A stretch of DNA of 27,781 nucleotides, taken from positions 446 to 28,226 of the forward strand of contig DUKU01000080.1 of the NCBI GenBank assembly GCA_013329135.1. The letters run 5' to 3'. This stretch comes from Thermoplasmata archaeon. Its GTDB lineage: Archaea > Thermoplasmatota > Thermoplasmata > UBA10834. Below the pieces are notes generated by a model. The model worked only from the letters and a program-made list of their open reading frames with translations, was not told the origin of the DNA and did not search any database. A program made the translations under genes and the position numbers. The stretch's first letter is position 1, and every line of letters begins with the position of its first letter. Below are positions 15,655 to 25,295 of this stretch, piece by piece.

Positions 15655-17559
15655 TCAGAGGCTCAGGAATAGGTGGGACGCGGCCCCCATGACCATGGCC
15701 AGTGAGATGGAGCCCGCGGTCACGAGCAGTGTGCTCTTCAGCCCGAACTCCTTCAACATGACCGCCCACGCCGCGAGGCAGGGCATGAACACGGCCATGA
15801 CGAGCGCGAAGGTGAACATCTGCTCGGGGGTGAGATGCAGCGCGAGGTTGCTCGTGCCGAACAGAACCATGAGCATCTGGAGCGCCATCTCCTTCCTCAG
15901 GATGCCGAACACCAGCGCGACCACCGTGACGCCGGGGAGGCCGAGGACGACTATCATGAACCCTTCGGAGGGTTCGATCAGTCTCTGAAGGGCTCCCTCC
16001 GCCATGAGCATCTCGAGCACGATGCTGCCCACAAGGAGGAGCGGGAATGCGATTGTCAGAAACTCCTTGATCCTGATGGATGTCTTCCTCAGGGTCTCCG
16101 AGGCCGATGGTGTCCGAAGGTCTGGAATCTCGACGAACAGGCCCGTTGGCTCGAACTTGATGGTCCTGTGCATCACGAACCCCAGGAACACGAGCGTCGC
16201 GCCGAGTATGAGGTATATCGACAGCGCCCAGGTGACGCCCGCGTAGTTGCCCACGGTGCCGATTATGATCGCCGTCTGCGCGGAACATGGCACCGCCATG
16301 GTGATGAGCGTGGCGAGTATGAGCCGTTCCCTCTTCGACCCCATGGCCCTGGTCGCCAGGATCGCGGGGACGTTGCACCCGAATCCAACGACCATGGGGA
16401 TGATCGCCCTTCCGTGCAGCCCGAGCCTATGCATCACGCCATCCAAGAGCGACACGACCCTGACCAGGTATCCCGTGTCCTCAAGCACGGCGAGCATGAG
16501 GTAGAAGACCAGTATGTACGGTATGACGAGCGCGAGCATCGCCTCGACGCTGAGATAGATCCCCTCGGCCACGCCTTTGGCGAGTCCGCTCGACAGACCG
16601 TCTTTGAAGTCCTCGAACGGTCCTCGGAGGGCGTCCGTGTAGGCTCCCACGAGCGCCCCTTCTATCCAACCCCCGACGAAGACGAGCACGAGGAACACAG
16701 CGGCGAGCACCGCGACGAGGATGGGGATGCCCGTCACAGGTCTGAGGGTAAGATCGGAGATCAGTCCCTCCTCCTTCTTCCTTCCAGCGGACTCTCCTAC
16801 GACGTCGGATGCGATCCGCCCAGCCTCGCCGAACCGGTCCCTCTCTATGTGCACGACGATGTCCTCGCCGTGTTGATGCACGAACTGCTCTCGCATGGAC
16901 TCTGATGCCTTGACCGCTTCAGGAGCGGCCCGTTCTACGACCCTCGGATCTCCTGTGAGGAGGCGGAGCGATACCGCCCTGAGTGGCATGGACCAGTCCT
17001 CTTCCTTGAGCATCCCGCTGAGTTCTCGGACCATCTCCTCGATGTGCGAGTCGTATCTGACCTTGAACTTGCTCCTGCCTCTGAGCTGAACGGATGTGAA
17101 CAGGAGCGAGTCGATCCCTTCCCCTTTGGTGGCCACGGTGGGGATGACCGGAATCATCAGTATCCGCTCCAGACGTGTGACATCCACGTCGCGTCCGGTC
17201 TTCCTCATCGCATCGTACATGTTGAGCGCTGCGATGACGTGGTATCCTGATTCGATCAGCTCGAATAGCAGGACTAGATTGCGCTCGAGCCTCGTCGAGT
17301 CGAGCACAGCGATGATCGTGTCTGGCCGCCTCTCAAACAATAGGTTCGTCGCGACCCTCTCATCGTCTGTGTTGCCTGCGAGCGAGTAGGTCCCGGGGAT
17401 GTCGATGACTGTGATCGTGGACCCCATGAACTTGGCCTTCCCCTCGAAGAACTCGACGGTCGTTCCGGGGTAGTTGGAGCTGATGACGCCCACGCCGGTG
17501 AGCTTGCTGAAAACGACGCTCTTCCCCACGTTCGGGTTTCCGGCCAGGGCGATCTCCAT
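15655..17559 (-). CDS. feoB: Ferrous iron transporter FeoB
   Basis: G1 GNPNVGKS, G2 NYPGTTV, G3 DIPGTYS, G4 NMYD. Membrane domain with GFGCNVPA, VPCSAQ and FMPCLA. Confidence 0.96.
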   Translation of the reverse strand: MEIALAGNPNVGKSVVFSKLTGVGVISSNYPGTTVEFFEGKAKFMGSTITVIDIPGTYSLAGNTDDERVATNLLFERRPDTIIAVLDSTRLERNLVLLFELIESGYHVIAALNMYDAMRKTGRDVDVTRLERILMIPVIPTVATKGEGIDSLLFTSVQLRGRSKFKVRYDSHIEEMVRELSGMLKEEDWSMPLRAVSLRLLTGDPRVVERAAPEAVKASESMREQFVHQHGEDIVVHIERDRFGEAGRIASDVVGESAGRKKEEGLISDLTLRPVTGIPILVAVLAAVFLVLVFVGGWIEGALVGAYTDALRGPFEDFKDGLSSGLAKGVAEGIYLSVEAMLALVIPYILVFYLMLAVLEDTGYLVRVVSLLDGVMHRLGLHGRAIIPMVVGFGCNVPAILATRAMGSKRERLILATLITMAVPCSAQTAIIIGTVGNYAGVTWALSIYLILGATLVFLGFVMHRTIKFEPTGLFVEIPDLRTPSASETLRKTSIRIKEFLTIAFPLLLVGSIVLEMLMAEGALQRLIEPSEGFMIVVLGLPGVTVVALVFGILRKEMALQMLMVLFGTSNLALHLTPEQMFTFALVMAVFMPCLAAWAVMLKEFGLKSTLLVTAGSISLAMVMGAASHLFLSL

Positions 17560-17571
17560 GCACTCCCTCCC

Positions 17572-18237
17572 TCAGGCCCTGACCATGTGCAGGACGCCGC
17601 CGATCTCCCTCGCGAGCGCGATCTTCGTCCCTTTGAGGGATACGATGATCGGGCCGCCCATGGGCACCTTCTTCTCGACCTTGACCTCGCTTCCAGGGAC
17701 GAAACCCATCGCCAATATGCGGCAGAGTTCGTCCCTGTCATTGGATGTTAGGTGCGACACCGTTCCCACATCGCCTTCCCCCAGGTCGAGCAGGAGAACC
17801 GTCTCGTTCGTGCACTTCTCGCACGCGATGCCACGGTCACATTTGGGTATGAGCTTCCCGTGCGGACACTCGGATGGGCGGTTCAGCATCCGGCACAGCT
17901 GCCTCTCTGCTTCGTCTGTCAGGACATGCTCCATCTTGCATGCCTGCGCGTGCCTCGCCCTTCCCCTGATGCCACACAGGTCGTTGAGGAAACGTTCCAG
18001 GAGCCGGTGCTTCCTGGTCACCTGCCGTGCGATCTTGAGCCCCTTTGGGGTCAGGTTCGCTCCGTGGTATTTCTCGTGCTTCACGTGTCCCTGTTTGGCG
18101 AGCTTCTGCATCATCTCCGTCGCGGACGCGGGCGCGACGTCCATGGCCTTCGCGATGTCGGATGTCTTGGCGACCCCGCCCTCCTCAGTGAGATTGTATA
18201 TGATCTTGAGGTACTGCTCTGCGATCTCGGTTACCAT
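17572..18237 (-). CDS. DtxR/IdeR-family metal-dependent repressor with a C-terminal FeoA domain
   Basis: EQYLKIIY..., HTH, metal sites RKHRLLERFL and ACKMEH, CPHGKLIP. C-terminal FeoA pattern LAMGFVPGSEVKV...PMGGPIIVSLKGTKIALAR. Confidence 0.92.
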   Translation of the reverse strand: MVTEIAEQYLKIIYNLTEEGGVAKTSDIAKAMDVAPASATEMMQKLAKQGHVKHEKYHGANLTPKGLKIARQVTRKHRLLERFLNDLCGIRGRARHAQACKMEHVLTDEAERQLCRMLNRPSECPHGKLIPKCDRGIACEKCTNETVLLLDLGEGDVGTVSHLTSNDRDELCRILAMGFVPGSEVKVEKKVPMGGPIIVSLKGTKIALAREIGGVLHMVRA

Positions 18238-18247
18238 CAGACATGAG

Positions 18248-18261
18248 TTAGGTTAACCTAA
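18248..18261. promoter_or_regulatory. Putative DtxR-family operator
   Basis: Perfect 14-bp palindrome TTAGGTTAACCTAA between the TATA box (18263-18269) and the start codon of the regulator. Confidence 0.8.
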
Positions 18262-18262
18262 A

Positions 18263-18269
18263 TTATATA
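18263..18269 (-). promoter_or_regulatory. TATA box of the dtxR-feoB unit
   Basis: The minus strand reads ACAAAGTATATAA, about 26-32 nt upstream of the ATG at 18237. Confidence 0.7.
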
Positions 18270-18312: not shown

Positions 18313-18492
18313 TTACTTCTCGGAGTCTAGATACTTCTTGAAAGGGTATGTCTTCAGCTTGATGTCCCCGTCGCCCGCAGGGGGATACTCCTCTTCGTAC
18401 TCTTTCCGGGCGATCGACAGCGCCTCCTTCGTCAGCGCGCTCGTCTTGACTCCGTAGTTCTGGACCAACCACGTCTCGAAATCCCACCTCAC
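18313..18492 (-). CDS. Unknown 59-aa protein (absent from the ORF track)
   Basis: GTG start with GAGGTGGTGA SD and host-like GC3 codons. MRWDFETWLVQNYGVKTSALTKEALSIARKEYEEEYPPAGDGDIKLKTYPFKKYLDSEK. Confidence 0.7.
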   Translation of the reverse strand: MRWDFETWLVQNYGVKTSALTKEALSIARKEYEEEYPPAGDGDIKLKTYPFKKYLDSEK

Positions 18493-18548
18493 GGTCTCAC
18501 CACCTCTGGGAAGGCGGACCGGGGGAATAAGTCTGCCCCCGAAAGCCG

Positions 18549-19436
18549 TCAGGCCTGCCCGATCAGGTCCATCATCTTCCTGTGGATCTTGGACATGGCG
18601 TGAGTCGCCGGGCTAGCGACGTTCTTACCGGCAGTCCTACCCTGCGCCATCGTGTTGGCCAACACCTCGTCGTACGGGATGCTCCCCAGCAAGTGTGCCC
18701 CCTCCGCGACGGCATGTTCTTCGATGCGCCTCGTGAGGTCCTGGTTCAGGTCGGCCTTGTTCGTGACTAGTCCGATGGGGAGGTTGAACCCCTTCGCGAG
18801 GTCCATGATCCTCTTCGCATCGCTGAAGCCGGATTCCGTGGGTTCGGTGACTATTATCGCGAGTGAGCACCCTGAGAGGGATGATATCACAGAACACCCA
18901 ATCCCTGGTGGACCGTCCACCAGTATCGTTCCGACTCCCTCCTCCTTCGCGGCCATCCTGGCCCTCTGCTTGACCATCGCGACGAGCTTACCCGAGTTGT
19001 CCTCCCCGGGTTCGAGCAGGGCGTGCACCATCGTGCCGAAGACGGTCTTCGATATGAACCACTCGCCGACCTTCTTGTCGACCATCTTGATCGCCTTGCT
19101 CGGGCATATGCGGCTGCACAGCGCGCACCCTTCACACGACCCCTGCTCTATCGCGACCTTCATGAGGCTGGGGTTGCCGATGCTCTTGATTGCGCCGAAT
19201 CTGCAGACCGGGACGCACTTCCCGCAGTTGGTGCATGCCGAACCGATTATGGTCGCCACCTTCATACCTGCGAAGTCCTCCCGATGCAGTATCTTGGGTT
19301 TCAGTAGCAGGTGCAGGTTCGGAGCGTCGACGTCGCAGTCCGCGGTGACGGCGTTGTTCATGACGGATGCGAGGTATCCGAGCAGAGTGGTCTTGCCCGT
19401 GCCGCCCTTGCCGCTGACTATCACTATCTCCTTCAT
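18549..19436 (-). CDS. MinD-superfamily P-loop ATPase with two inserted 4Fe-4S ferredoxin motifs (COG1149-like), copy B
   Basis: SGKGGTGKTT, DCDVDAPN, CTNCGKCVPVC, CEGCALCSRICP, SGKLV and DGPPGIGC. Confidence 0.92.
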   Translation of the reverse strand: MKEIVIVSGKGGTGKTTLLGYLASVMNNAVTADCDVDAPNLHLLLKPKILHREDFAGMKVATIIGSACTNCGKCVPVCRFGAIKSIGNPSLMKVAIEQGSCEGCALCSRICPSKAIKMVDKKVGEWFISKTVFGTMVHALLEPGEDNSGKLVAMVKQRARMAAKEEGVGTILVDGPPGIGCSVISSLSGCSLAIIVTEPTESGFSDAKRIMDLAKGFNLPIGLVTNKADLNQDLTRRIEEHAVAEGAHLLGSIPYDEVLANTMAQGRTAGKNVASPATHAMSKIHRKMMDLIGQA

Positions 19437-20266
19437 CTCCCCGCCTCCGAGAGCGCCCAGTCCCTGAGCTTCTTGAATGTGGTGTTGAATCTCGCGTCTT
19501 CGGCAATCAGAGCACCTCTGGAGTACGCCTCCGCGATTGACCGGTCTATCGGCAGCTTGCCGACGACTGGTATCTTGTGGGCGTCGCAGAACTGCTGGAT
19601 GTCGGGGCCTGGCAGTCCATGCTTGTTAACGAAGACCGCCGCAGGGACCTTCAGTTTCCTGGTGACTTCCAGGGCGAGCTTGAGGTCGTGCAGCCCGAAA
19701 GGAGTGGGCTCGGTGACGAGGACGCAGGCGTCCGCCCCCTTGATGCTCTCCACCGCTGTGCACGCCGTCCCAGGAGGACAGTCCATGATAGTGATCGGCC
19801 CTTCAGGTATGGTGGCTTTGACCTGCCTTATGAGCGGTGTCGCTGCGGCCTCGCCTACCTTGAGTCTGCCGTACATCAGCTTGAGCACGCCACCTTCGGC
19901 CATTATCACCTCGCCCATGAGGTGGTCCACTTCTGTGATGGCGTCCTCAGGACAGAGCATCGAACATGCGCCGCAACCATGGCACAGCTCCTTGAAGACC
20001 ATCACTTCCTTGGGCAGCACGGCTATCGCGTGGAACTCGCAGACCTTCCTGCAGTTGCCGCACAGGGTGCACTTCGATGCATCCACCTGGGGCACCAGTC
20101 TGAAGACCTTCTCCGCACGCTCCGATTTCGCCTGGGCGAAGATGTAGCAGTTCGGCTCCTCGACATCAAGGTCAACCAGGGTCGCATCCTTGGTGACCGC
20201 GGCCAGGTTCGTCGCGACAAGGGTCTTGCCTGTCCCACCCTTGCCGCTCGCTATCGCTATCTTCGT
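19433..20266 (-). CDS. MinD-superfamily P-loop ATPase with ferredoxin insert (COG1149-like), copy A; the start position is ACG
   Basis: The reading frame extends upstream of the tracked ORF to ACG-AAG-ATA-GCG-ATA-GCG-AGC-GGC-AAG-GGT (xKIAIASGKGGTGKT), then DLDVEEPN, CTLCGNCRKVC, CHGCGACSMLCP, DCPPGTAC and TEPTPFGLHDL. Confidence 0.88.
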   Translation of the reverse strand, partial: TKIAIASGKGGTGKTLVATNLAAVTKDATLVDLDVEEPNCYIFAQAKSERAEKVFRLVPQVDASKCTLCGNCRKVCEFHAIAVLPKEVMVFKELCHGCGACSMLCPEDAITEVDHLMGEVIMAEGGVLKLMYGRLKVGEAAATPLIRQVKATIPEGPITIMDCPPGTACTAVESIKGADACVLVTEPTPFGLHDLKLALEVTRKLKVPAAVFVNKHGLPGPDIQQFCDAHKIPVVGKLPIDRSIAEAYSRGALIAEDARFNTTFKKLRDWALSEAGR

Positions 20267-20290
20267 AAGATCGCCCTCACGCGCTGTGGT

Positions 20291-20650
20291 TCAATGGTGA
20301 TGTTCCTTGCAGGCGACGTCGTGCGATGCCGCAAGCAGCTTCCCGTCGCGCCACATCTGCACCGCGTCCTTGGCCGTCCCCGAGGCGCCCACGAACACCT
20401 GGATGTCGAATGCCTGGAGCATGTCGATCGCCTTGGGCCCGAGCCCAGAGCATATCAGGACCTTCGCGCCGGTCTTCGCGATGTGTTCCGGCGGCTTGCC
20501 CAGTCCTCCCATGTGCTCGCTCCTGTTCGCTACGACCTGGGCCTGGTCGGTGTCCGTGTCAATCACAGTGAACGTCGGCGCGCGGCCGAAGTGTTCACAC
20601 ACGAGGTCGTCGACCCCTCCTTTCTCCATCGTCGGTACGCATATCTTCAT
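20291..20650 (-). CDS. NifB/NifX (MTH1175/ORP-like) family protein 1
   Basis: MKICVPT, CEHFGRAPTF, LICSGLGPKA, GIQVF-like segment, and His tail KEHHH. Start reassigned from 20797. Confidence 0.9.
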   Translation of the reverse strand: MKICVPTMEKGGVDDLVCEHFGRAPTFTVIDTDTDQAQVVANRSEHMGGLGKPPEHIAKTGAKVLICSGLGPKAIDMLQAFDIQVFVGASGTAKDAVQMWRDGKLLAASHDVACKEHHH

Positions 20651-20688
20651 CCTATTATCACTCCTTGATCTCTCGATTCTGACCGTTC

Positions 20689-20826
20689 TCACTCCTTGTC
20701 CTTGAATCGTAGTCTCCAGCCAATCCTGACAATCTTGTCGGAACTGCAGCTGAAGCACTTGTCCGGCTTCTCCGGCAGGGCCATCTCCAGCCCGCACCCG
20801 TTACATCTGAACCTGAGCAGCTTCAA
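20689..20826 (-). CDS. 45-aa Zn-ribbon/rubredoxin-like microprotein (absent from the ORF track)
   Basis: TTG start with GGAGG SD. MKLLRFRCNGCGLEMALPEKPDKCFSCSSDKIVRIGWRLRFKDKE contains two CxxC motifs. Confidence 0.75.
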   Translation of the reverse strand: MKLLRFRCNGCGLEMALPEKPDKCFSCSSDKIVRIGWRLRFKDKE

Positions 20827-21289
20827 GGCCGCGCCTCCGTGTCTGCCCGGTCCTGCACTTCGCGTCCCTTACAGCGTTCCTGAATGCGATGACTGACAGA
20901 CTCGCACAGTGTATGTGATTCTCTGGCAGTCCGCCAAGGGACGTGGTCAGGTCCTCAGGGCTGATGGCCATCGCATCCTCAATCGTTCGTCCGGTCACGA
21001 GCTTCGTGAGCCTGCTCCCGCAGGCGATAGTGGCGCCGCAACCGTCCGTGTAGAACGTGCACTGCGACACCTTCTCTCCGTCAATCTTGACCCACATGTG
21101 CATGGAGTCCATGCAGAGCCCGTCCGCGACCCCTGAGCCGTCCGCGTCGTCCATCGGACCGACATTTGCGGGGTCCCGGAACTCGGAGATCACCTCTTTG
21201 GTGTAGATCTTCGAGTCCTCTGATTCCATGGCCGTCACGATGTTCTCGACGAGTCGGTCGAGCTCCGAGGGGCTATTCTTGTTGCTCAT
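20801..21289 (-). CDS. IscU/NifU-like Fe-S scaffold protein
   Basis: Y..EVISEFRDPANVG, GLCMD (CGD variant), DGCGATIACGS and GGLPENHIHCA. Start reassigned to MSNK. Confidence 0.88.
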   Translation of the reverse strand: MSNKNSPSELDRLVENIVTAMESEDSKIYTKEVISEFRDPANVGPMDDADGSGVADGLCMDSMHMWVKIDGEKVSQCTFYTDGCGATIACGSRLTKLVTGRTIEDAMAISPEDLTTSLGGLPENHIHCASLSVIAFRNAVRDAKCRTGQTRRRGLEAAQVQM

Positions 21290-21297
21290 TGTTCCGT

Positions 21298-21693
21298 CTA
21301 CCTTCCCATCGGACCATGGCCGTGAGGTCCCTGCCCGTGGTGTCCAGGTGAGGTCGCGGTTGCGGTCTCTCTGAGTTCGCCATTCCTGTATGCCTCTATG
21401 GCGGAGCCGACCGTGCCGGTGCACCTGACGAACATCTGGACGCCTCCAGCTGCCAGGACCCTGAACGCGTTGGGCCCTAGATCGCCGGTGACGACGGCGC
21501 CGACGCCGAGGTCGAGGATCTGCTGCGCCGCCTGGATGCCCGCGCCGTTGCCTAGGGCCTGGCCGGCATTCCTCACCACTCTGTGTCCTTTGTTCTCATC
21601 GAATATGATGAAGTAGGAACACCTTCCGAACCTTGGGTCGACCGGTGATTCCAGTGATTCGCCTGTCGAACTGACTGCCACGCGCTTTCCCAT
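21298..21693 (-). CDS. NifB/NifX (MTH1175/ORP-like) family protein 2
   Basis: VAVSSTG...VDPRFGRCSYF, GAGIQAAQ, VVTGDLGPNAF and a Gly/His-rich tail. Alternative start at 21723. Confidence 0.9.
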   Translation of the reverse strand: MGKRVAVSSTGESLESPVDPRFGRCSYFIIFDENKGHRVVRNAGQALGNGAGIQAAQQILDLGVGAVVTGDLGPNAFRVLAAGGVQMFVRCTGTVGSAIEAYRNGELRETATATSPGHHGQGPHGHGPMGR

Positions 21694-21727
21694 GCCTTCC
21701 GTCTCTCTGGATTCTGTAGCCATATGG

Positions 21728-21901
21728 TCAATCACCGCACTGTGTGCCCTTCATCGCCGAGCCGCATTTCGGGCACTTCGTCTTGCTGCACGGCACCCCT
21801 CTGAACGCATGGGGTGCTTCGGTCCCGCACTTGGGACACACGCACTTCTTCGAGCCGAACTCGAGTTCGCTCTCTGTCTGGACAACTTCCTTCTCAGCCA
21901 T
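21728..21901 (-). CDS. 57-aa Cys-rich microprotein (CxCPxCG...CxxxxCPxCG)
   Basis: GAGGAGG SD. MAEKEVVQ...CVCPKCGTEAPHAFRGVPCSKTKCPKCGSAM. Confidence 0.8.
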   Translation of the reverse strand: MAEKEVVQTESELEFGSKKCVCPKCGTEAPHAFRGVPCSKTKCPKCGSAMKGTQCGD

Positions 21902-22097
21902 TTCGGCCTCCTCCTTGTCCTCTCCTGGGAGCCTGCATGCACCCTCTCCCAGCGCCTCTCCTGCCACTGTCGTCCGATGACCTGCGGATGTTCCTGCTGC
22001 CACAGGACGGGCATGCGGTCGGCCGTCCAGTGCCGAACGGCTCATCCCACTTCCGTCCGCACTCGAAGCACTCGAACTTCCTCGTCCCGGGCATCAT
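21894..22097 (-). CDS. 67-aa Zn-ribbon microprotein with Gly/Arg-rich tail
   Basis: FECFECGRKW...CPSCGS, then RRGAGRGC...GQGGGRNG. Abuts mrp and overlaps the next gene. Confidence 0.8.
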   Translation of the reverse strand: MMPGTRKFECFECGRKWDEPFGTGRPTACPSCGSRNIRRSSDDSGRRGAGRGCMQAPRRGQGGGRNG

Positions 22098-22101
22098 CCT
22101 G

Positions 22102-22944
22102 TCAACCGCCTTTGCCCTCGACCGCCTCGATGATCTTCTTCGTGATCTCGTCGAATGCCTTCGCGGCCTTGTCCGACCCCAAGGCGAATGGCTTGCCCGC
22201 GTCCCCGCTATTGGCTATGTCCGGGCTGAGCGGCAGTTGTCCGAGGAGCGGGACCGAGAGATCCTTCGTCGCCTTCGCGACGCCCCCGTCCTGGAACAGC
22301 TGTATCATCTTTCCACAGTGCGGGCACTCGAGCCCGTACATGTTCTCTACGAGGCCTATGGGCTTGAGCCCGACGGCCTTCGCGAAGTTGATCGACTTCC
22401 TGACGCTCAGGAGCGCGACATCCTGTGGCGTCGTCACGATGATGGCGCCATCGGGCGATGGTACGAGCTGGGCGGTGCTGAGTGGTTCATCCCCAGTGCC
22501 TGGCGGGAGATCCACCAATAGGTAGTCCAGCTCTCCCCACTCGACCTCCTCAAGGAACTGCTTGATCGCTCCCATCTTGACCGGTCCTCTCCAGATGACT
22601 GGGGAGTCCCGGTCACTCAACAGGAACGCTATCGACACGACTTTGATCGACGGAGGGACGAAGAACGGCACGATTCTTCCCTTGTCGTCCACGGTCAGCG
22701 GGAGGTTCGGGATGCCGAGAAGCTTCGGAACGCTCGGCCCGTGCATGTCTGCGTCCAGGAGCCCAACCTTCCTCCCCTTCTTGGCCAGGGCCGCGGCGAG
22801 GTTGACAGCCACGGTGGACTTGCCGACCCCGCCCTTGCCGCTCATGATGATGACCTTGTGCTTGACGTTCTTCAGGTTCTCGGCCGCTGTCGATGCGGCC
22901 GGCGCCTTGGAGGGTGTGCTCTGCTTTCCAGTGAATGCACTCAT
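22102..22944 (-). CDS. mrp: Mrp/ApbC/NBP35 Fe-S carrier ATPase
   Basis: SGKGGVGKS, DADMHGPS, IWRGP, DLPPGTGDE, TTPQ, ENM and CPHC. Confidence 0.95.
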   Translation of the reverse strand: MSAFTGKQSTPSKAPAASTAAENLKNVKHKVIIMSGKGGVGKSTVAVNLAAALAKKGRKVGLLDADMHGPSVPKLLGIPNLPLTVDDKGRIVPFFVPPSIKVVSIAFLLSDRDSPVIWRGPVKMGAIKQFLEEVEWGELDYLLVDLPPGTGDEPLSTAQLVPSPDGAIIVTTPQDVALLSVRKSINFAKAVGLKPIGLVENMYGLECPHCGKMIQLFQDGGVAKATKDLSVPLLGQLPLSPDIANSGDAGKPFALGSDKAAKAFDEITKKIIEAVEGKGG

Positions 22945-22966
22945 GTTACGGACACCATCCCTCGGA

Positions 22967-23353
22967 TCAACAGGTGAAGACCCTGTCCACGTCCACGGCC
23001 TCCGCCGCGAAGTCCATGAGGTTGACGAACTCGACGCCGTCTATGAACTGGTTCTTGTCGATACCCCTGGATTCGAGGCACGGGATGCAGACCTGGATCT
23101 TCCCACCGCTCTGGAGAAACGCGTCCATCATCTGCTTCACGGGCGCCATCCCCTCGACGGGTTTGAGCTTCTCAGCGTATCCCTTCTGGGCGAGCTTGAC
23201 GCCGTTCATGGTCAGGAACACCTTGGTCCTGATGCCCAGCGCCGTAGATGCTCCCGCGCACGCGAATGTCATGGTCGCCTTCTCGAGCTCCTCGTCCCCG
23301 TGCGTGCCTATCACGAGGAACGACTTCTTCGAATAATCCGTCTTCTTGGCCAA
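22967..23353 (-). CDS. DsrE/DsrF-like family protein
   Basis: THG..E.EKATMTFACA, FLTMNGV and VCIPCLESRG. Probable TTG start with GAGGT SD. Confidence 0.85.
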   Translation of the reverse strand: MAKKTDYSKKSFLVIGTHGDEELEKATMTFACAGASTALGIRTKVFLTMNGVKLAQKGYAEKLKPVEGMAPVKQMMDAFLQSGGKIQVCIPCLESRGIDKNQFIDGVEFVNLMDFAAEAVDVDRVFTC

Positions 23354-23429
23354 TCTGATACCTCTAGCTACCACTTGGCCTTCCACGTTGAAGTCCGGTA
23401 CGGCGAACAGGTTAGCCGTGCGTGGCTTT

Positions 23430-24023
23430 TCACTCAGGTGGAAGGCCGAACCGGTTCTTCTTGTAGTACCCGCTGTAGATCGCCCCTGCGGGGTTGTGGG
23501 CCAGCACTCTATCCTTCACGATGAACGTCGTCACGGGCGCCTTCGAGTGCTTCGTGAACAGCATGTCGTGGCCTACGCACAGGCCGATCAGGATGTTCAT
23601 CTCGGTCACGCACTCGGCGAGGCACATAGCCTGGCCAATCGGATCGCACACCGCCTCGTCACCGTCGTCCCCGTGCAGTTTGACGACCCCCAGCTCCTTC
23701 TTGTCTATTCCGCAGATCTTGCAGCACACGGAATGCACCTCGAGTCCCTGCTTGGCGAGTATGTCCGCAACGGTCCTGGCCTCCGAGGAGAGGCCGACGC
23801 AGAAGGCGATCCCGAGTCTCTTCATGCCCATCTCCTTCGCGTACAGGATGAGCTCCTCCAGCCTGGTCTTCTTCATGTAGTGCTCAGCCTCGACCTTCCC
23901 TGAGACCCTCATCGATTTGAGCTCGTACCCCTCGTACGCCTTCCTCGCCCTGTCAGCGAGGCCGAAACAGTCCTTGCCCTCATAGCATTCTTTGTCCGCA
24001 CAGTGCGCGCAATCCGTCTTCAT
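23430..24023 (-). CDS. DUF1847-family Cys-rich metal-binding protein
   Basis: CAHC...C, TRLEELI, GIAFCVGL, VCCKICG, CDPIGQA, GLCVGHD and KDRVLAHNP. Confidence 0.88.
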   Translation of the reverse strand: MKTDCAHCADKECYEGKDCFGLADRARKAYEGYELKSMRVSGKVEAEHYMKKTRLEELILYAKEMGMKRLGIAFCVGLSSEARTVADILAKQGLEVHSVCCKICGIDKKELGVVKLHGDDGDEAVCDPIGQAMCLAECVTEMNILIGLCVGHDMLFTKHSKAPVTTFIVKDRVLAHNPAGAIYSGYYKKNRFGLPPE

Positions 24024-24073
24024 CGAGTTCCCCCGTCGCTTCGAAGGTTTTCGTCGCCCCTGATGGCACCGCG

Positions 24074-24709
24074 TCAGCATGTCTCGCCTATATGGCTCGC
24101 CACCAACTTCCTCTGGGCCCTCCTCAACATCACATCGAGGGTGGCCTTCGATATCTCCAGCCTCTTAGCCAGTATGTCGAGCGTGATCTTCCTCGGTATC
24201 TCGAAGTACCCGAGTTCGTAGGCCATCTGAAGCACCTTCTCCTGGGCGAGCGTGAGTTCGGAGACGGTCCTCAGGACAGATATCTTCTCGACCTCGACGG
24301 TGCAACCGAGTTCCTTGACCTTCTCGACGAGGTTCCTGAGGGCGGCCGCGTTCGGGGCGATGACGTTCCACTGCATCATCCCGCCATCACGGTTGGAGGC
24401 AGAGTCCATGAAGCATCCAGAATCTGCCATGAGCCTGCACGCGGCGCATTGCTGCAGCTCGACCGTGCCTATGTGCCTGCCCGGTCCTGCGGCGGTGAGC
24501 TGGACCGTGCAGTTCGGCTCCACCTCGCGTATCCTGTTTACCAGCTCCTCCTGGGACAGGCCCGGGTCTGTGTCTATCTGCAGGAAGCTCTGCCCACCGT
24601 TGCTGTTCTTGGGCACGCATTTGAGTATCTTGACAGATAGGTCGCAACTGCTGGCGAGGCAGCCGATCCAGTTGCCAGGTATCTTGACGAGCAGCGATGC
24701 GGACCTCAC
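24074..24709 (-). CDS. Bacterio-opsin-activator-type (HTH_10) transcriptional regulator
   Basis: C-terminal LTLAQEKVLQMAYELGYFEIPRKITLDILAKRLEISKATLDVMLRRAQRKL. GTG start overlapping the DUF134 stop, with GGTGG SD. Confidence 0.88.
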   Translation of the reverse strand: MRSASLLVKIPGNWIGCLASSCDLSVKILKCVPKNSNGGQSFLQIDTDPGLSQEELVNRIREVEPNCTVQLTAAGPGRHIGTVELQQCAACRLMADSGCFMDSASNRDGGMMQWNVIAPNAAALRNLVEKVKELGCTVEVEKISVLRTVSELTLAQEKVLQMAYELGYFEIPRKITLDILAKRLEISKATLDVMLRRAQRKLVASHIGETC

Positions 24710-25044
24710 TTCGGACCACCCGTCTTGCAGGCCGCCGCACGAGCCGGAGGTTCCGGGGCGTGAGGCGAACCACGTGCTATCCTGAGCGCCATGCCATCGG
24801 TGAGGGCCTCGGCTACCTTGGACCTGGCGCCTGAAAGTATCCGGTTGAAAGTGGGTTGCGAGATGTCCATCTTCTTTGCCGCCTCCGCCTGCGACAGGTC
24901 CTCGACGTCCGAGAGCCTCAAGGCCTCGAGTTCGTCCAGCTCTATCTCTATGCTGGACAGTTCGCTCATGGGGATTCCCTGCGGTTTGAAGACCTTGTAT
25001 TCCGGGTCGAAGCAGACCTTCCGGCACCTCTTCGGTCGGGGCAT
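24706..25044 (-). CDS. DUF134 (UPF0251) predicted DNA-binding protein
   Basis: MPRPKRCRKV, FKPQG, ELEALRLSD, Q.EAA..M.ISQPTF.RIL..AR.KVA.AL..G.AL.I. Confidence 0.92.
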   Translation of the reverse strand: MPRPKRCRKVCFDPEYKVFKPQGIPMSELSSIEIELDELEALRLSDVEDLSQAEAAKKMDISQPTFNRILSGARSKVAEALTDGMALRIARGSPHAPEPPARAAACKTGGPK

Positions 25045-25067
25045 CGTAATGGATTATAATTCATAAC

Positions 25068-25079
25068 TATTTAACCATT
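25068..25079 (-). promoter_or_regulatory. BRE/TATA of the DUF134-led cluster
   Basis: AATGGTTAAATA ends 24 nt before the ATG, consistent with a leaderless transcript. Confidence 0.65.
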
Positions 25080-25295
25080 CGCCCGTGTCCTCGTCCTCGT
25101 GCCGGGATGTCCGAAGGGTTGATGTATTTCGAGTGCTTTTTCTTGATTGGTCGTGTAGACCAGGAGGTTCCCGGTTATGATGTCCGACAGAGTTCTAGCA
25201 GCTGTGCCGGGAACCCCGTAGCGTCGTGTCGGGTTCTCGGGCTGTCGTGAGCTTGTTCTGCGAACGCCACACATCCAGAGAAATGGAATCCGAGA

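Follow-up and report, generated by a model that had tools for sequence, protein, structure and literature searches.

What is accomplished by fourteen closely spaced genes in the genome of a Thermoplasmata archaeon? The genes were located in a stretch of 27,781 nucleotides (contig DUKU01000080.1 of assembly GCA_013329135.1, positions 446 to 28,226), which was analysed as a whole and is referred to here as the window. They were co-directional on the minus strand, from position 25044 down to 18313, and were separated by gaps of at most 76 nucleotides or joined by overlaps of 4-26 nucleotides, as a sequence-only reading of this DNA had described. Their order was DUF134, HTH_10, DUF1847, DsrE, Mrp/NBP35, two microproteins that we call mic1 and mic2, NifX-like protein 1, an IscU-type protein, a zinc ribbon of 45 residues, NifX-like protein 2, MinD-type ATPase 1, ATPase 2, and a last microprotein, mic3. 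Family assignment of the window proteins was done by Pfam and NCBIfam profile searches, and every gene family named in the sequence-only reading was recovered in this way.

Our answer has several parts of different strength. The gene arrangement was far beyond chance, and the cluster is a richer variant of the known orange protein (ORP) system, which was described in Desulfovibrio (PMC6345978, PMC8359166). On balance, it is probable that the fourteen genes constitute one operon for an ORP-type iron-sulfur (Fe-S) handling machine. Its most likely function would be the self-regulated assembly and passing on of iron-sulfur clusters.

The source genome was a 1.71-Mb assembly that was 84% complete. 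The window had about 60% G+C and a strong third-position bias, the relatives of the cluster proteins were labelled Thermoplasmata in the homolog listing, and a search of sequencing runs found the cluster DNA in groundwater metagenomes.

The ORP-type core of the cluster

The sequence-only reading had taken the cluster for an ORP-type locus, and its core genes bore this out: paired ferredoxin-bearing MinD-type ATPases, MTH1175/ORP-type proteins, and Mrp. The two ATPases (ATPase 1 at 19433-20266 and ATPase 2 at 18549-19436, both on the minus strand, as were all genes of the cluster) matched CbiA/ParA and Fer4 and carried the insert for two [4Fe-4S] clusters that is typical of Orp3 and Orp4. Each of them had two Fer4 motifs, and all eight cluster cysteines were invariant in the alignment. 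The two genes overlapped by 4 nucleotides (ATGA), and ATPase 2 had more than 7,900 homologs at E <= 1e-10.

The two Nitro_FeMo-Co copies scored 74 and 75 bits. NifX-like protein 1 (21298-21723; PF02579, 1.8e-20) was of the ORP/MTH1175 type and had a Gly- and His-rich tail of about 24 residues. Its matches in the PDB were ORP of D. gigas (2wfb, 6e-17), MTH1175 (1eo1, 3e-15) and 1rdu (8e-18). NifX-like protein 2 (20291-20650; PF02579, 5.8e-21) was of the TM1816 type with a CEHFG motif; it matched 1t3v and 1o13 at about 4e-15 and ORP at 5e-12, as well as the NifX-like part of the MrpORP model of NCBIfam. The Mrp/NBP35 protein (22102-22944, 280 residues), an ApbC-type Fe-S carrier ATPase, was assigned by PF10609 (1e-93) and Mrp/NUBPL (314 bits), and its translation showed a CPHC motif. 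Its best NCBIfam match was MrpORP (NF041136), where it covered positions 1-253 with 351 bits. This was below the cut-off of 450 bits because the NifX-like domain, fused in the model, was absent from the protein and formed a separate gene.

Conservation within Thermoplasmata

The window was compared with seven other Thermoplasmata loci (L002-L007 and L009), namely ATPase 2 homologs with annotated neighbours, in which the identity of ATPase 2 ranged from 48 to 94%. Four of them (L002-L005, with 94, 60, 55 and 53% identity) retained the entire block together with the dtxR, feoB and ftsZ genes that follow it in the window. The other three, L006 (50%), L007 (48%) and L009 (56%), retained the block in entirely different flanks. 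Since the block was kept despite the changed flanks, the 13 genes with an assigned family behave as one travelling unit, which the iron-uptake and ftsZ genes accompany in the nearest clade only. In L006 (3438-5675 and 10936-11935), radical SAM and metallo-beta-lactamase-fold genes were inserted around DUF1847, and the ATPases were followed by a second DUF134 gene and then by two DUF5320 genes.

The same loci bore on the start of ATPase 1, which was non-canonical. Its frame was open from the TGA at 20291-20293, with none of the codons ATG, GTG and TTG ahead of the Walker A motif. A canonical start was also absent in L002 (94% identical) and in the more distant L009, while ATG was present in L003, L004, L006 and L007, and TTG in L005. 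In the start region of the window gene (20243-20293), a Shine-Dalgarno-like GTGAGGGCG was found ahead of the codons CTT ACG AAG ATA.

Recurrence in other phyla

To place the cluster beyond its clade, 80 ATPase-anchored loci from species-representative genomes, mostly of bacteria from many phyla, were surveyed with hidden Markov models (HMMs) derived from the window and its orthologs. The following counts are lower bounds for genes co-directional with the anchor in those 61 loci that measured 8 kb or more and did not belong to the Thermoplasmata clade: the ATPase pair was found in 60 of the 61 loci, NifX-like genes in 57, Mrp in 27, DUF134 and mic2-like genes in 22 each, IscU in 20, DUF1847 in six, DsrE in four, and DtxR and FeoB in three each. 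Neither HTH_10 nor FtsZ was detected in any of the 61. We also considered DsrE as an addition made only in Thermoplasmata and rejected this idea; bacterial neighbours of the DsrE family had escaped a narrow HMM and were confirmed by Pfam, and with a rebuilt model six bacterial loci, counted irrespective of length, were seen to contain DsrE-family genes.

The DUF1847 family was present in 17 of the 201 sampled genomes of the phylum, and Methanosarcina had DUF1847 as well as NifX-like genes. Among 16 fetched regions of the phylum centred on DUF1847, this gene directly adjoined the ATPase pair in 13, usually after IscU. The usual order in these regions was Mrp, NifX, NifX, ATPase, ATPase, IscU and DUF1847, with HTH_10 or DUF134 upstream. 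Moreover, large protein clusters contained fusions of DUF1847 with Nitro_FeMo-Co and with rhodanese, and in four loci (L062, L052, L048 and L046) the mic1 module, a separate gene in the window, formed the C-terminal part of a fusion with DUF134.

The varied gene order favoured functional linkage over inherited synteny, and the fusions of DUF1847 and of DUF134 with mic1 pointed in the same direction. According to the counts, the genes that appear as extras in the window were recurrent accessories. The sequence-only reading depended on such genes being conserved with the core, and IscU, DUF1847 and DsrE did recur beside the ATPase pair across phyla. Thus, the chance adjacency of unrelated operons was ruled out by the conservation of the block, the varied gene order and the domain fusions.

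Predicted promoter, candidate operator and regulators

The first gene of the cluster, here and in every related Thermoplasmata locus, encoded a DUF134 DNA-binding protein of 112 residues (24706-25044; PF02001, 4.8e-24, 85 bits), whose helix-turn-helix resembled region 4 of sigma-70 in the Pfam match. The sequence before it had a compact layout consisting of the TATA-like box TTAAATA (25068-25074, minus strand), 3 nucleotides, a palindrome of 16 bp (25049-25064), 4 nucleotides and the ATG. The box, which is the predicted operon promoter, came from a scan for AT tracts, and an equivalent AT-rich box preceded the palindrome in L002-L007 and L009. The palindrome, a candidate operator with the consensus ATGAATTATAATTCAT, had one mismatch in the window. 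Each of the eight Thermoplasmata loci had a single copy of it at this position, with the TATA-like box on one side and the DUF134 start on the other. Elsewhere in 1.5 Mb of loci there was a single extra match, with 2 mismatches, and in the source genome the palindrome was unique at up to 2 mismatches. In other phyla, DUF134 genes were preceded by related dyads composed of TTATGAAC, 4-6 bases and GTTCATAA. In the simplest reading, DUF134 would be an autoregulator whose binding spans the transcription start.

Signals inside the cluster were scarce. Between 25300 and 15600 the sense strand contained three AT tracts of at least 7 bases, where a mononucleotide shuffle gave an expectation of 9.2 +/- 2.9, and all three fell at two sites, two of them upstream of DUF134 and one upstream of dtxR. 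No T run of 5 or more bases was present on the sense strand of the same interval, the operon interior included. These predicted promoter and terminator signals are consistent with co-transcription of the fourteen genes.

The second gene encoded an HTH_10 regulator of 211 residues (24074-24709; PF04967, 3e-18, 66 bits), and its start overlapped the DUF134 stop by 4 nucleotides. Among 13 orthologs, C88, C91 and C99 of its N-terminal domain were invariant and C67 was 90% conserved. This invariant CxxC-x7-C with a nearly invariant fourth cysteine fits a metal- or cluster-sensing co-regulator. The structural model of the sensor domain (predicted local distance difference test, pLDDT, 83) was uninformative, with Ta1207 as the best sensible match at a template modelling (TM) score of 0.45.

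In Methanosarcinales and several bacterial loci, the C-terminus of DUF134 carried a zinc ribbon with a Gly/Arg tail (for example L062:3114-3758 and L052:4352-4825).

Scaffold, candidate sulfur carriers and microproteins

The IscU-type scaffold paralog (20801-21289, 162 residues; PF01592, 4.6e-26; NifU_N, 92 bits) was the second, divergent copy in the genome, where a standard IscS-IscU pair (Aminotran_5 and NifU_N) was encoded on another contig (C140). Like the scaffold of ISC/MIS-type IscS-IscU systems, it had the IscU fold and the conserved cluster ligands, since the Cys/Asp, Cys and His-Cys positions were kept. It differed from the standard copy in being only 40% identical to it, in its N- and C-terminal extensions, and in having no adjacent cysteine desulfurase. 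No SufBD gene was found in the 84%-complete genome. DsrE and DUF1847 were the only candidate sulfur partners of the cluster IscU.

The DsrE/YchN-family protein (22967-23353, 128 residues; PF02635, 2.6e-15, 57 bits), a putative sulfur carrier, was closest in structure to Sulfolobus 3mc3 and to E. coli YchN (1jx7). Two gene starts given in the sequence-only reading were revised with the help of orthologs: DsrE most likely begins with the TTG at 23353, as called in its orthologs, and the ortholog alignment moved the start of DUF1847 from 24080 to 24023. The resulting DUF1847 protein (23430-24023, 197 residues; PF08901, 8.9e-54, 182 bits) was rich in cysteine. It had a conserved N-terminal CxxCxxxxC, in which C5, C8 and C13 were nearly invariant, and the invariant residues C75, C101, C126, C149, H152 and D153. 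The best PDB matches of its model were generic Rossmann-like subdomains (Asp racemase, Dph2 and NifEN, with TM scores of at most 0.37), and its profile matched nothing among the PDB sequences.

Of the small proteins, mic1 (21894-22097, 67 residues) was a zinc-ribbon microprotein with a Gly/Arg-rich tail and a weak Zn_ribbon_8 match; its orthologs were present in L002 and L005-L007. The four-cysteine microprotein mic2 (21728-21901, 57 residues) showed the pattern CxCPxCG...PC...CPxCG and matched no Pfam or NCBIfam family. Both were widely conserved at the protein level, and homologs of mic2 often stood directly ahead of the ATPase pair. The zinc ribbon of 45 residues (20689-20826), recognised in translation by its two CxxC pairs, was kept in all Thermoplasmata loci and found in no other surveyed locus. 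The last gene, mic3 (18313-18492), was an open reading frame of 59 residues that matched no Pfam or NCBIfam family, and its conservation at the protein level was limited to the three closest relatives (L002-L004). Tails rich in Gly/Arg or Gly/His were carried by mic1, NifX-like protein 1 and the bacterial relatives of mic2.

The mic2 family itself was large and unnamed. Its members, of 60-100 residues and from anaerobes (L076:435-686, L056:8805-9029 and about 40 other loci), had a Gly/Arg-rich N-terminus followed by CxCPxCG..PH..PC..CPxCG, and their protein clusters were labelled only "hypothetical protein" or "ferredoxin family". The Gly/Arg-rich N-terminus of the bacterial relatives resembled the start of DUF5320 weakly, below threshold. 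DUF5320 itself had no Pfam or NCBIfam match in the window.

Neighbouring genes and expression

Upstream of the cluster was a divergent RIO kinase gene. On the other side, the same strand continued with a separate unit (15655-18269) identified by Pfam, which comprised a DtxR-FeoA fusion (18237-17572) and FeoB (17559-15655). Its promoter (18246-18269), located inside the 75-nucleotide gap after the cluster, consisted of a TATA-like box and, after it, the perfect dyad TTAGGTTAACCTAA. The dtxR-feoB and DUF134 promoters had the same layout of TATA box, palindrome and short leader. Among the Thermoplasmata loci, the unit followed the cluster in L002-L005 only. The iron-import unit, whose adjacency the sequence-only reading had seen, had its own promoter and operator and recurred in only three of the 61 loci elsewhere.

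Further on, beyond feoB and on the opposite strand, was an ftsZ gene. The distance between ftsZ and the cluster was no more than 3 kb in the window and in L002-L005, and also in L092, a locus with another gene arrangement; no ftsZ was near the cluster in L006, L007 and L009. L092 (G009:C66, 9887-14330), from another family of the phylum, had the order ATPase, ATPase, DUF1847, metallo-beta-lactamase, then a true ftsZ and an HflX-type GTPase. The source genome contained 7-8 FtsZ/tubulin-family genes in 1.7 Mb, at least 7 of them with an FtsZ_C match; they were on contigs C89, C11, C142, C95, C195, C129 and C5, which is many for a small archaeal genome. Genomes of this phylum have several FtsZ paralogs each. 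With so many copies, an ftsZ neighbour by chance is likely. The linkage suggested earlier was thus recovered in the nearest clade and in L092 and was absent from all 61 loci elsewhere, and we treated the proximity of ftsZ as inherited synteny or chance.

The cluster was found in DNA runs only, and no RNA run contained this strain. In one sediment metatranscriptome, contigs about 90-93% identical to the window covered DUF134-HTH_10, the junction of NifX-like protein 2 and ATPase 1, dtxR and feoB. They gave weak support for expression in a relative. As direct proof of co-transcription these fragments were set aside because they were too weak and came from a relative at this level of identity. 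One contig of 987 nucleotides (run X21, about 93% identical to window 24210-25196) reached from inside HTH_10 to about 150 nucleotides upstream of the DUF134 start, past the predicted promoter, and reflected either carried-over DNA or, in that relative, a transcript of greater length.

Comparison with known systems

The closest known system was the ORP system of Desulfovibrio (D. vulgaris Hildenborough and D. alaskensis; Orp3, Orp4, Orp5, Orp8 and Orp9/MrpORP). Both had two adjacent paralogous MinD-type ATPases with an insert for two [4Fe-4S] clusters, NifX-like proteins of the ORP/MTH1175 type (Orp8), and an Mrp/NBP35 protein whose closest model was MrpORP. Both also belonged to anaerobes only. 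In addition, OrpR targets solely the orp operons (PMC8359166), and the only detectable target of the window regulator was its own operon. On the other hand, Desulfovibrio has two divergent operons where the window had one, and it has Mrp and the NifX-like domain fused in Orp9 where the window had separate genes. Control is by sigma-54 and OrpR there, but by an archaeal TATA-type promoter with DUF134 and HTH_10 here; sigma-54/OrpR control defines the deltaproteobacterial version of ORP only. No DUF5320-type protein, looked for as a candidate small partner of the Orp5 type, was matched in the window, and the window added an IscU paralog, DsrE, DUF1847 and three zinc-ribbon or four-cysteine microproteins.

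A second comparison was with IssA of Pyrococcus furiosus, which shares with the window locus the NifX-type domain (IPR003731), Gly-rich charged tails and an anaerobic, sulfide-rich lifestyle. However, IssA is a single protein with a tail of 70 residues rich in Arg, aromatic residues and Gly, whereas the tails in the window were short, spread over several small proteins, and accompanied by ATPases and a scaffold. In the library of papers that was searched, none mentioned DUF1847 or COG1149, and DUF5320 appeared in two off-topic papers only.

Favoured function and rival explanations

If the cluster assembles and passes on Fe-S clusters, its parts could act as follows. DUF134 would bind the promoter-overlapping palindrome and control this operon only, and HTH_10, with its invariant CxxC-x7-C, may assist by sensing metal or cluster. 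DsrE and the cysteine-rich DUF1847 would supply sulfur or metal, while iron would come from the adjacent, separately controlled dtxR-feoB unit. The dedicated IscU paralog may build nascent Fe-S clusters, which the Mrp ATPase would carry onward; the two NifX-like proteins, together with the small proteins with cysteine motifs or Gly/Arg tails, could hold anionic cluster species. The two ferredoxin-bearing MinD-type ATPases would be the ATP-driven partner for delivery or reduction. In vitro, MrpORP of Desulfovibrio has been reported to hand its cluster over to Orp3-Orp4-Orp8 (PMC6345978).

Several points weighed against this assignment. The product of the ORP system is unresolved even in Desulfovibrio (PMC8359166), and no client enzyme was encoded in the locus. 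No gene with the Aminotran_5 domain of cysteine desulfurases was present in the window, and the putative role of DsrE and DUF1847 as sulfur donors was drawn from the family name, the gene neighbourhood and the fusions. The DUF1847 model, at a pLDDT of 90, had no close or informative relative in the PDB (best TM score 0.37). Models derived from the locus under-detected distant members in the survey, as was seen first with DsrE, and the RNA-library contigs, which belong to a relative, may reflect carried-over DNA.

The main rival, which we regard as a possibility of rather low probability, is that the cluster stores or detoxifies iron-sulfur material. In this case an anionic iron sulfide polymer resembling thioferrate would be held by the NifX-like proteins and Gly/Arg-rich tails, in the manner of IssA in Pyrococcus. 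Its loading or mobilisation, at times of plentiful iron and sulfide, would fall to the ATPases and Mrp. IssA combines the same NifX-type domain with a cationic Gly-rich tail that binds thioferrate (PMC5524996), such tails occurred on mic1, NifX-like protein 1 and the bacterial mic2 relatives, Fe(II) import adjoined the cluster here and in three of the 61 other loci, and the organism was from groundwater metagenomes. However, the short tail of NifX-like protein 1 was His-rich rather than rich in Arg or aromatic residues, and the IscU scaffold and Mrp carrier pointed to discrete clusters. Less likely still was the proposal of the sequence-only reading that the locus is a maturation line for a special heterometal-sulfur cofactor (such as Mo/W-Cu-S, as in the isolated orange protein, or a complex cluster) serving one client enzyme. 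A Mo-Cu-S cluster is bound without covalent attachment by ORP of Desulfovibrio (cited in PMC6345978). NifH-like ATPases participate in cofactor maturation, NifX-family proteins carry complex cofactors, and neither the many small cysteine-rich proteins of the cluster nor DUF1847 have a known role. Against this, the flanks varied between lineages with no conserved client enzyme beside the cluster, and the locus had no molybdate or tungstate transporter. No NifD/K/E/N-type or McrA gene was found in the 84%-complete source genome, and the recurrent accessories were general Fe-S parts. As a whole, the locus had the parts of ordinary Fe-S handling.

A role in cell division or positioning, in which the MinD-family ATPases would act with FtsZ as was once proposed for the Desulfovibrio ORP complex, seemed very improbable. 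The family membership of the ATPases, the altered morphology of Desulfovibrio orpR mutants (PMC8359166) and the ftsZ gene within 3 kb here, in L002-L005 and in L092 could be cited for it. However, ftsZ was missing near three of the related clusters and from all loci of the wider survey, the number of FtsZ-family genes made a chance neighbour likely, and the gene in the window was on the opposite strand beyond feoB. Moreover, the remaining operon was devoted to Fe-S chemistry. That one promoter precedes the genes for scaffold, carrier, candidate sulfur carriers and cluster holders as well as those of the two ATPases argues for Fe-S handling over cell division.

Implications for ORP-type loci

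The ORP complex occurs widely among anaerobes and has been without an assigned function for more than 10 years. Our analysis offers testable roles for DUF134 as an operator-binding regulator, for DUF1847 as a partner to proteins of the NifX-like and sulfur-transfer kinds, and for the four-cysteine microprotein mic2. A more speculative proposal, to which we give a rather small chance of being correct in full, is that the full form of ORP-type loci is a self-contained pathway by which strict anaerobes make or store iron-sulfur material with no cysteine desulfurase involved. In such a pathway, sulfur derived from sulfide would enter through DsrE and DUF1847, clusters would be built and handed on by the dedicated IscU paralog and Mrp, anionic iron-sulfide species would be held by the NifX-like proteins and the Gly/Arg-tailed microproteins, the ferredoxin-ATPase pair would drive delivery, and a DUF134 repressor with an operator shared across phyla would control all of them. 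If this were true, the pathway would be a further system of Fe-S biogenesis beside ISC, SUF, NIF and the minimal forms.

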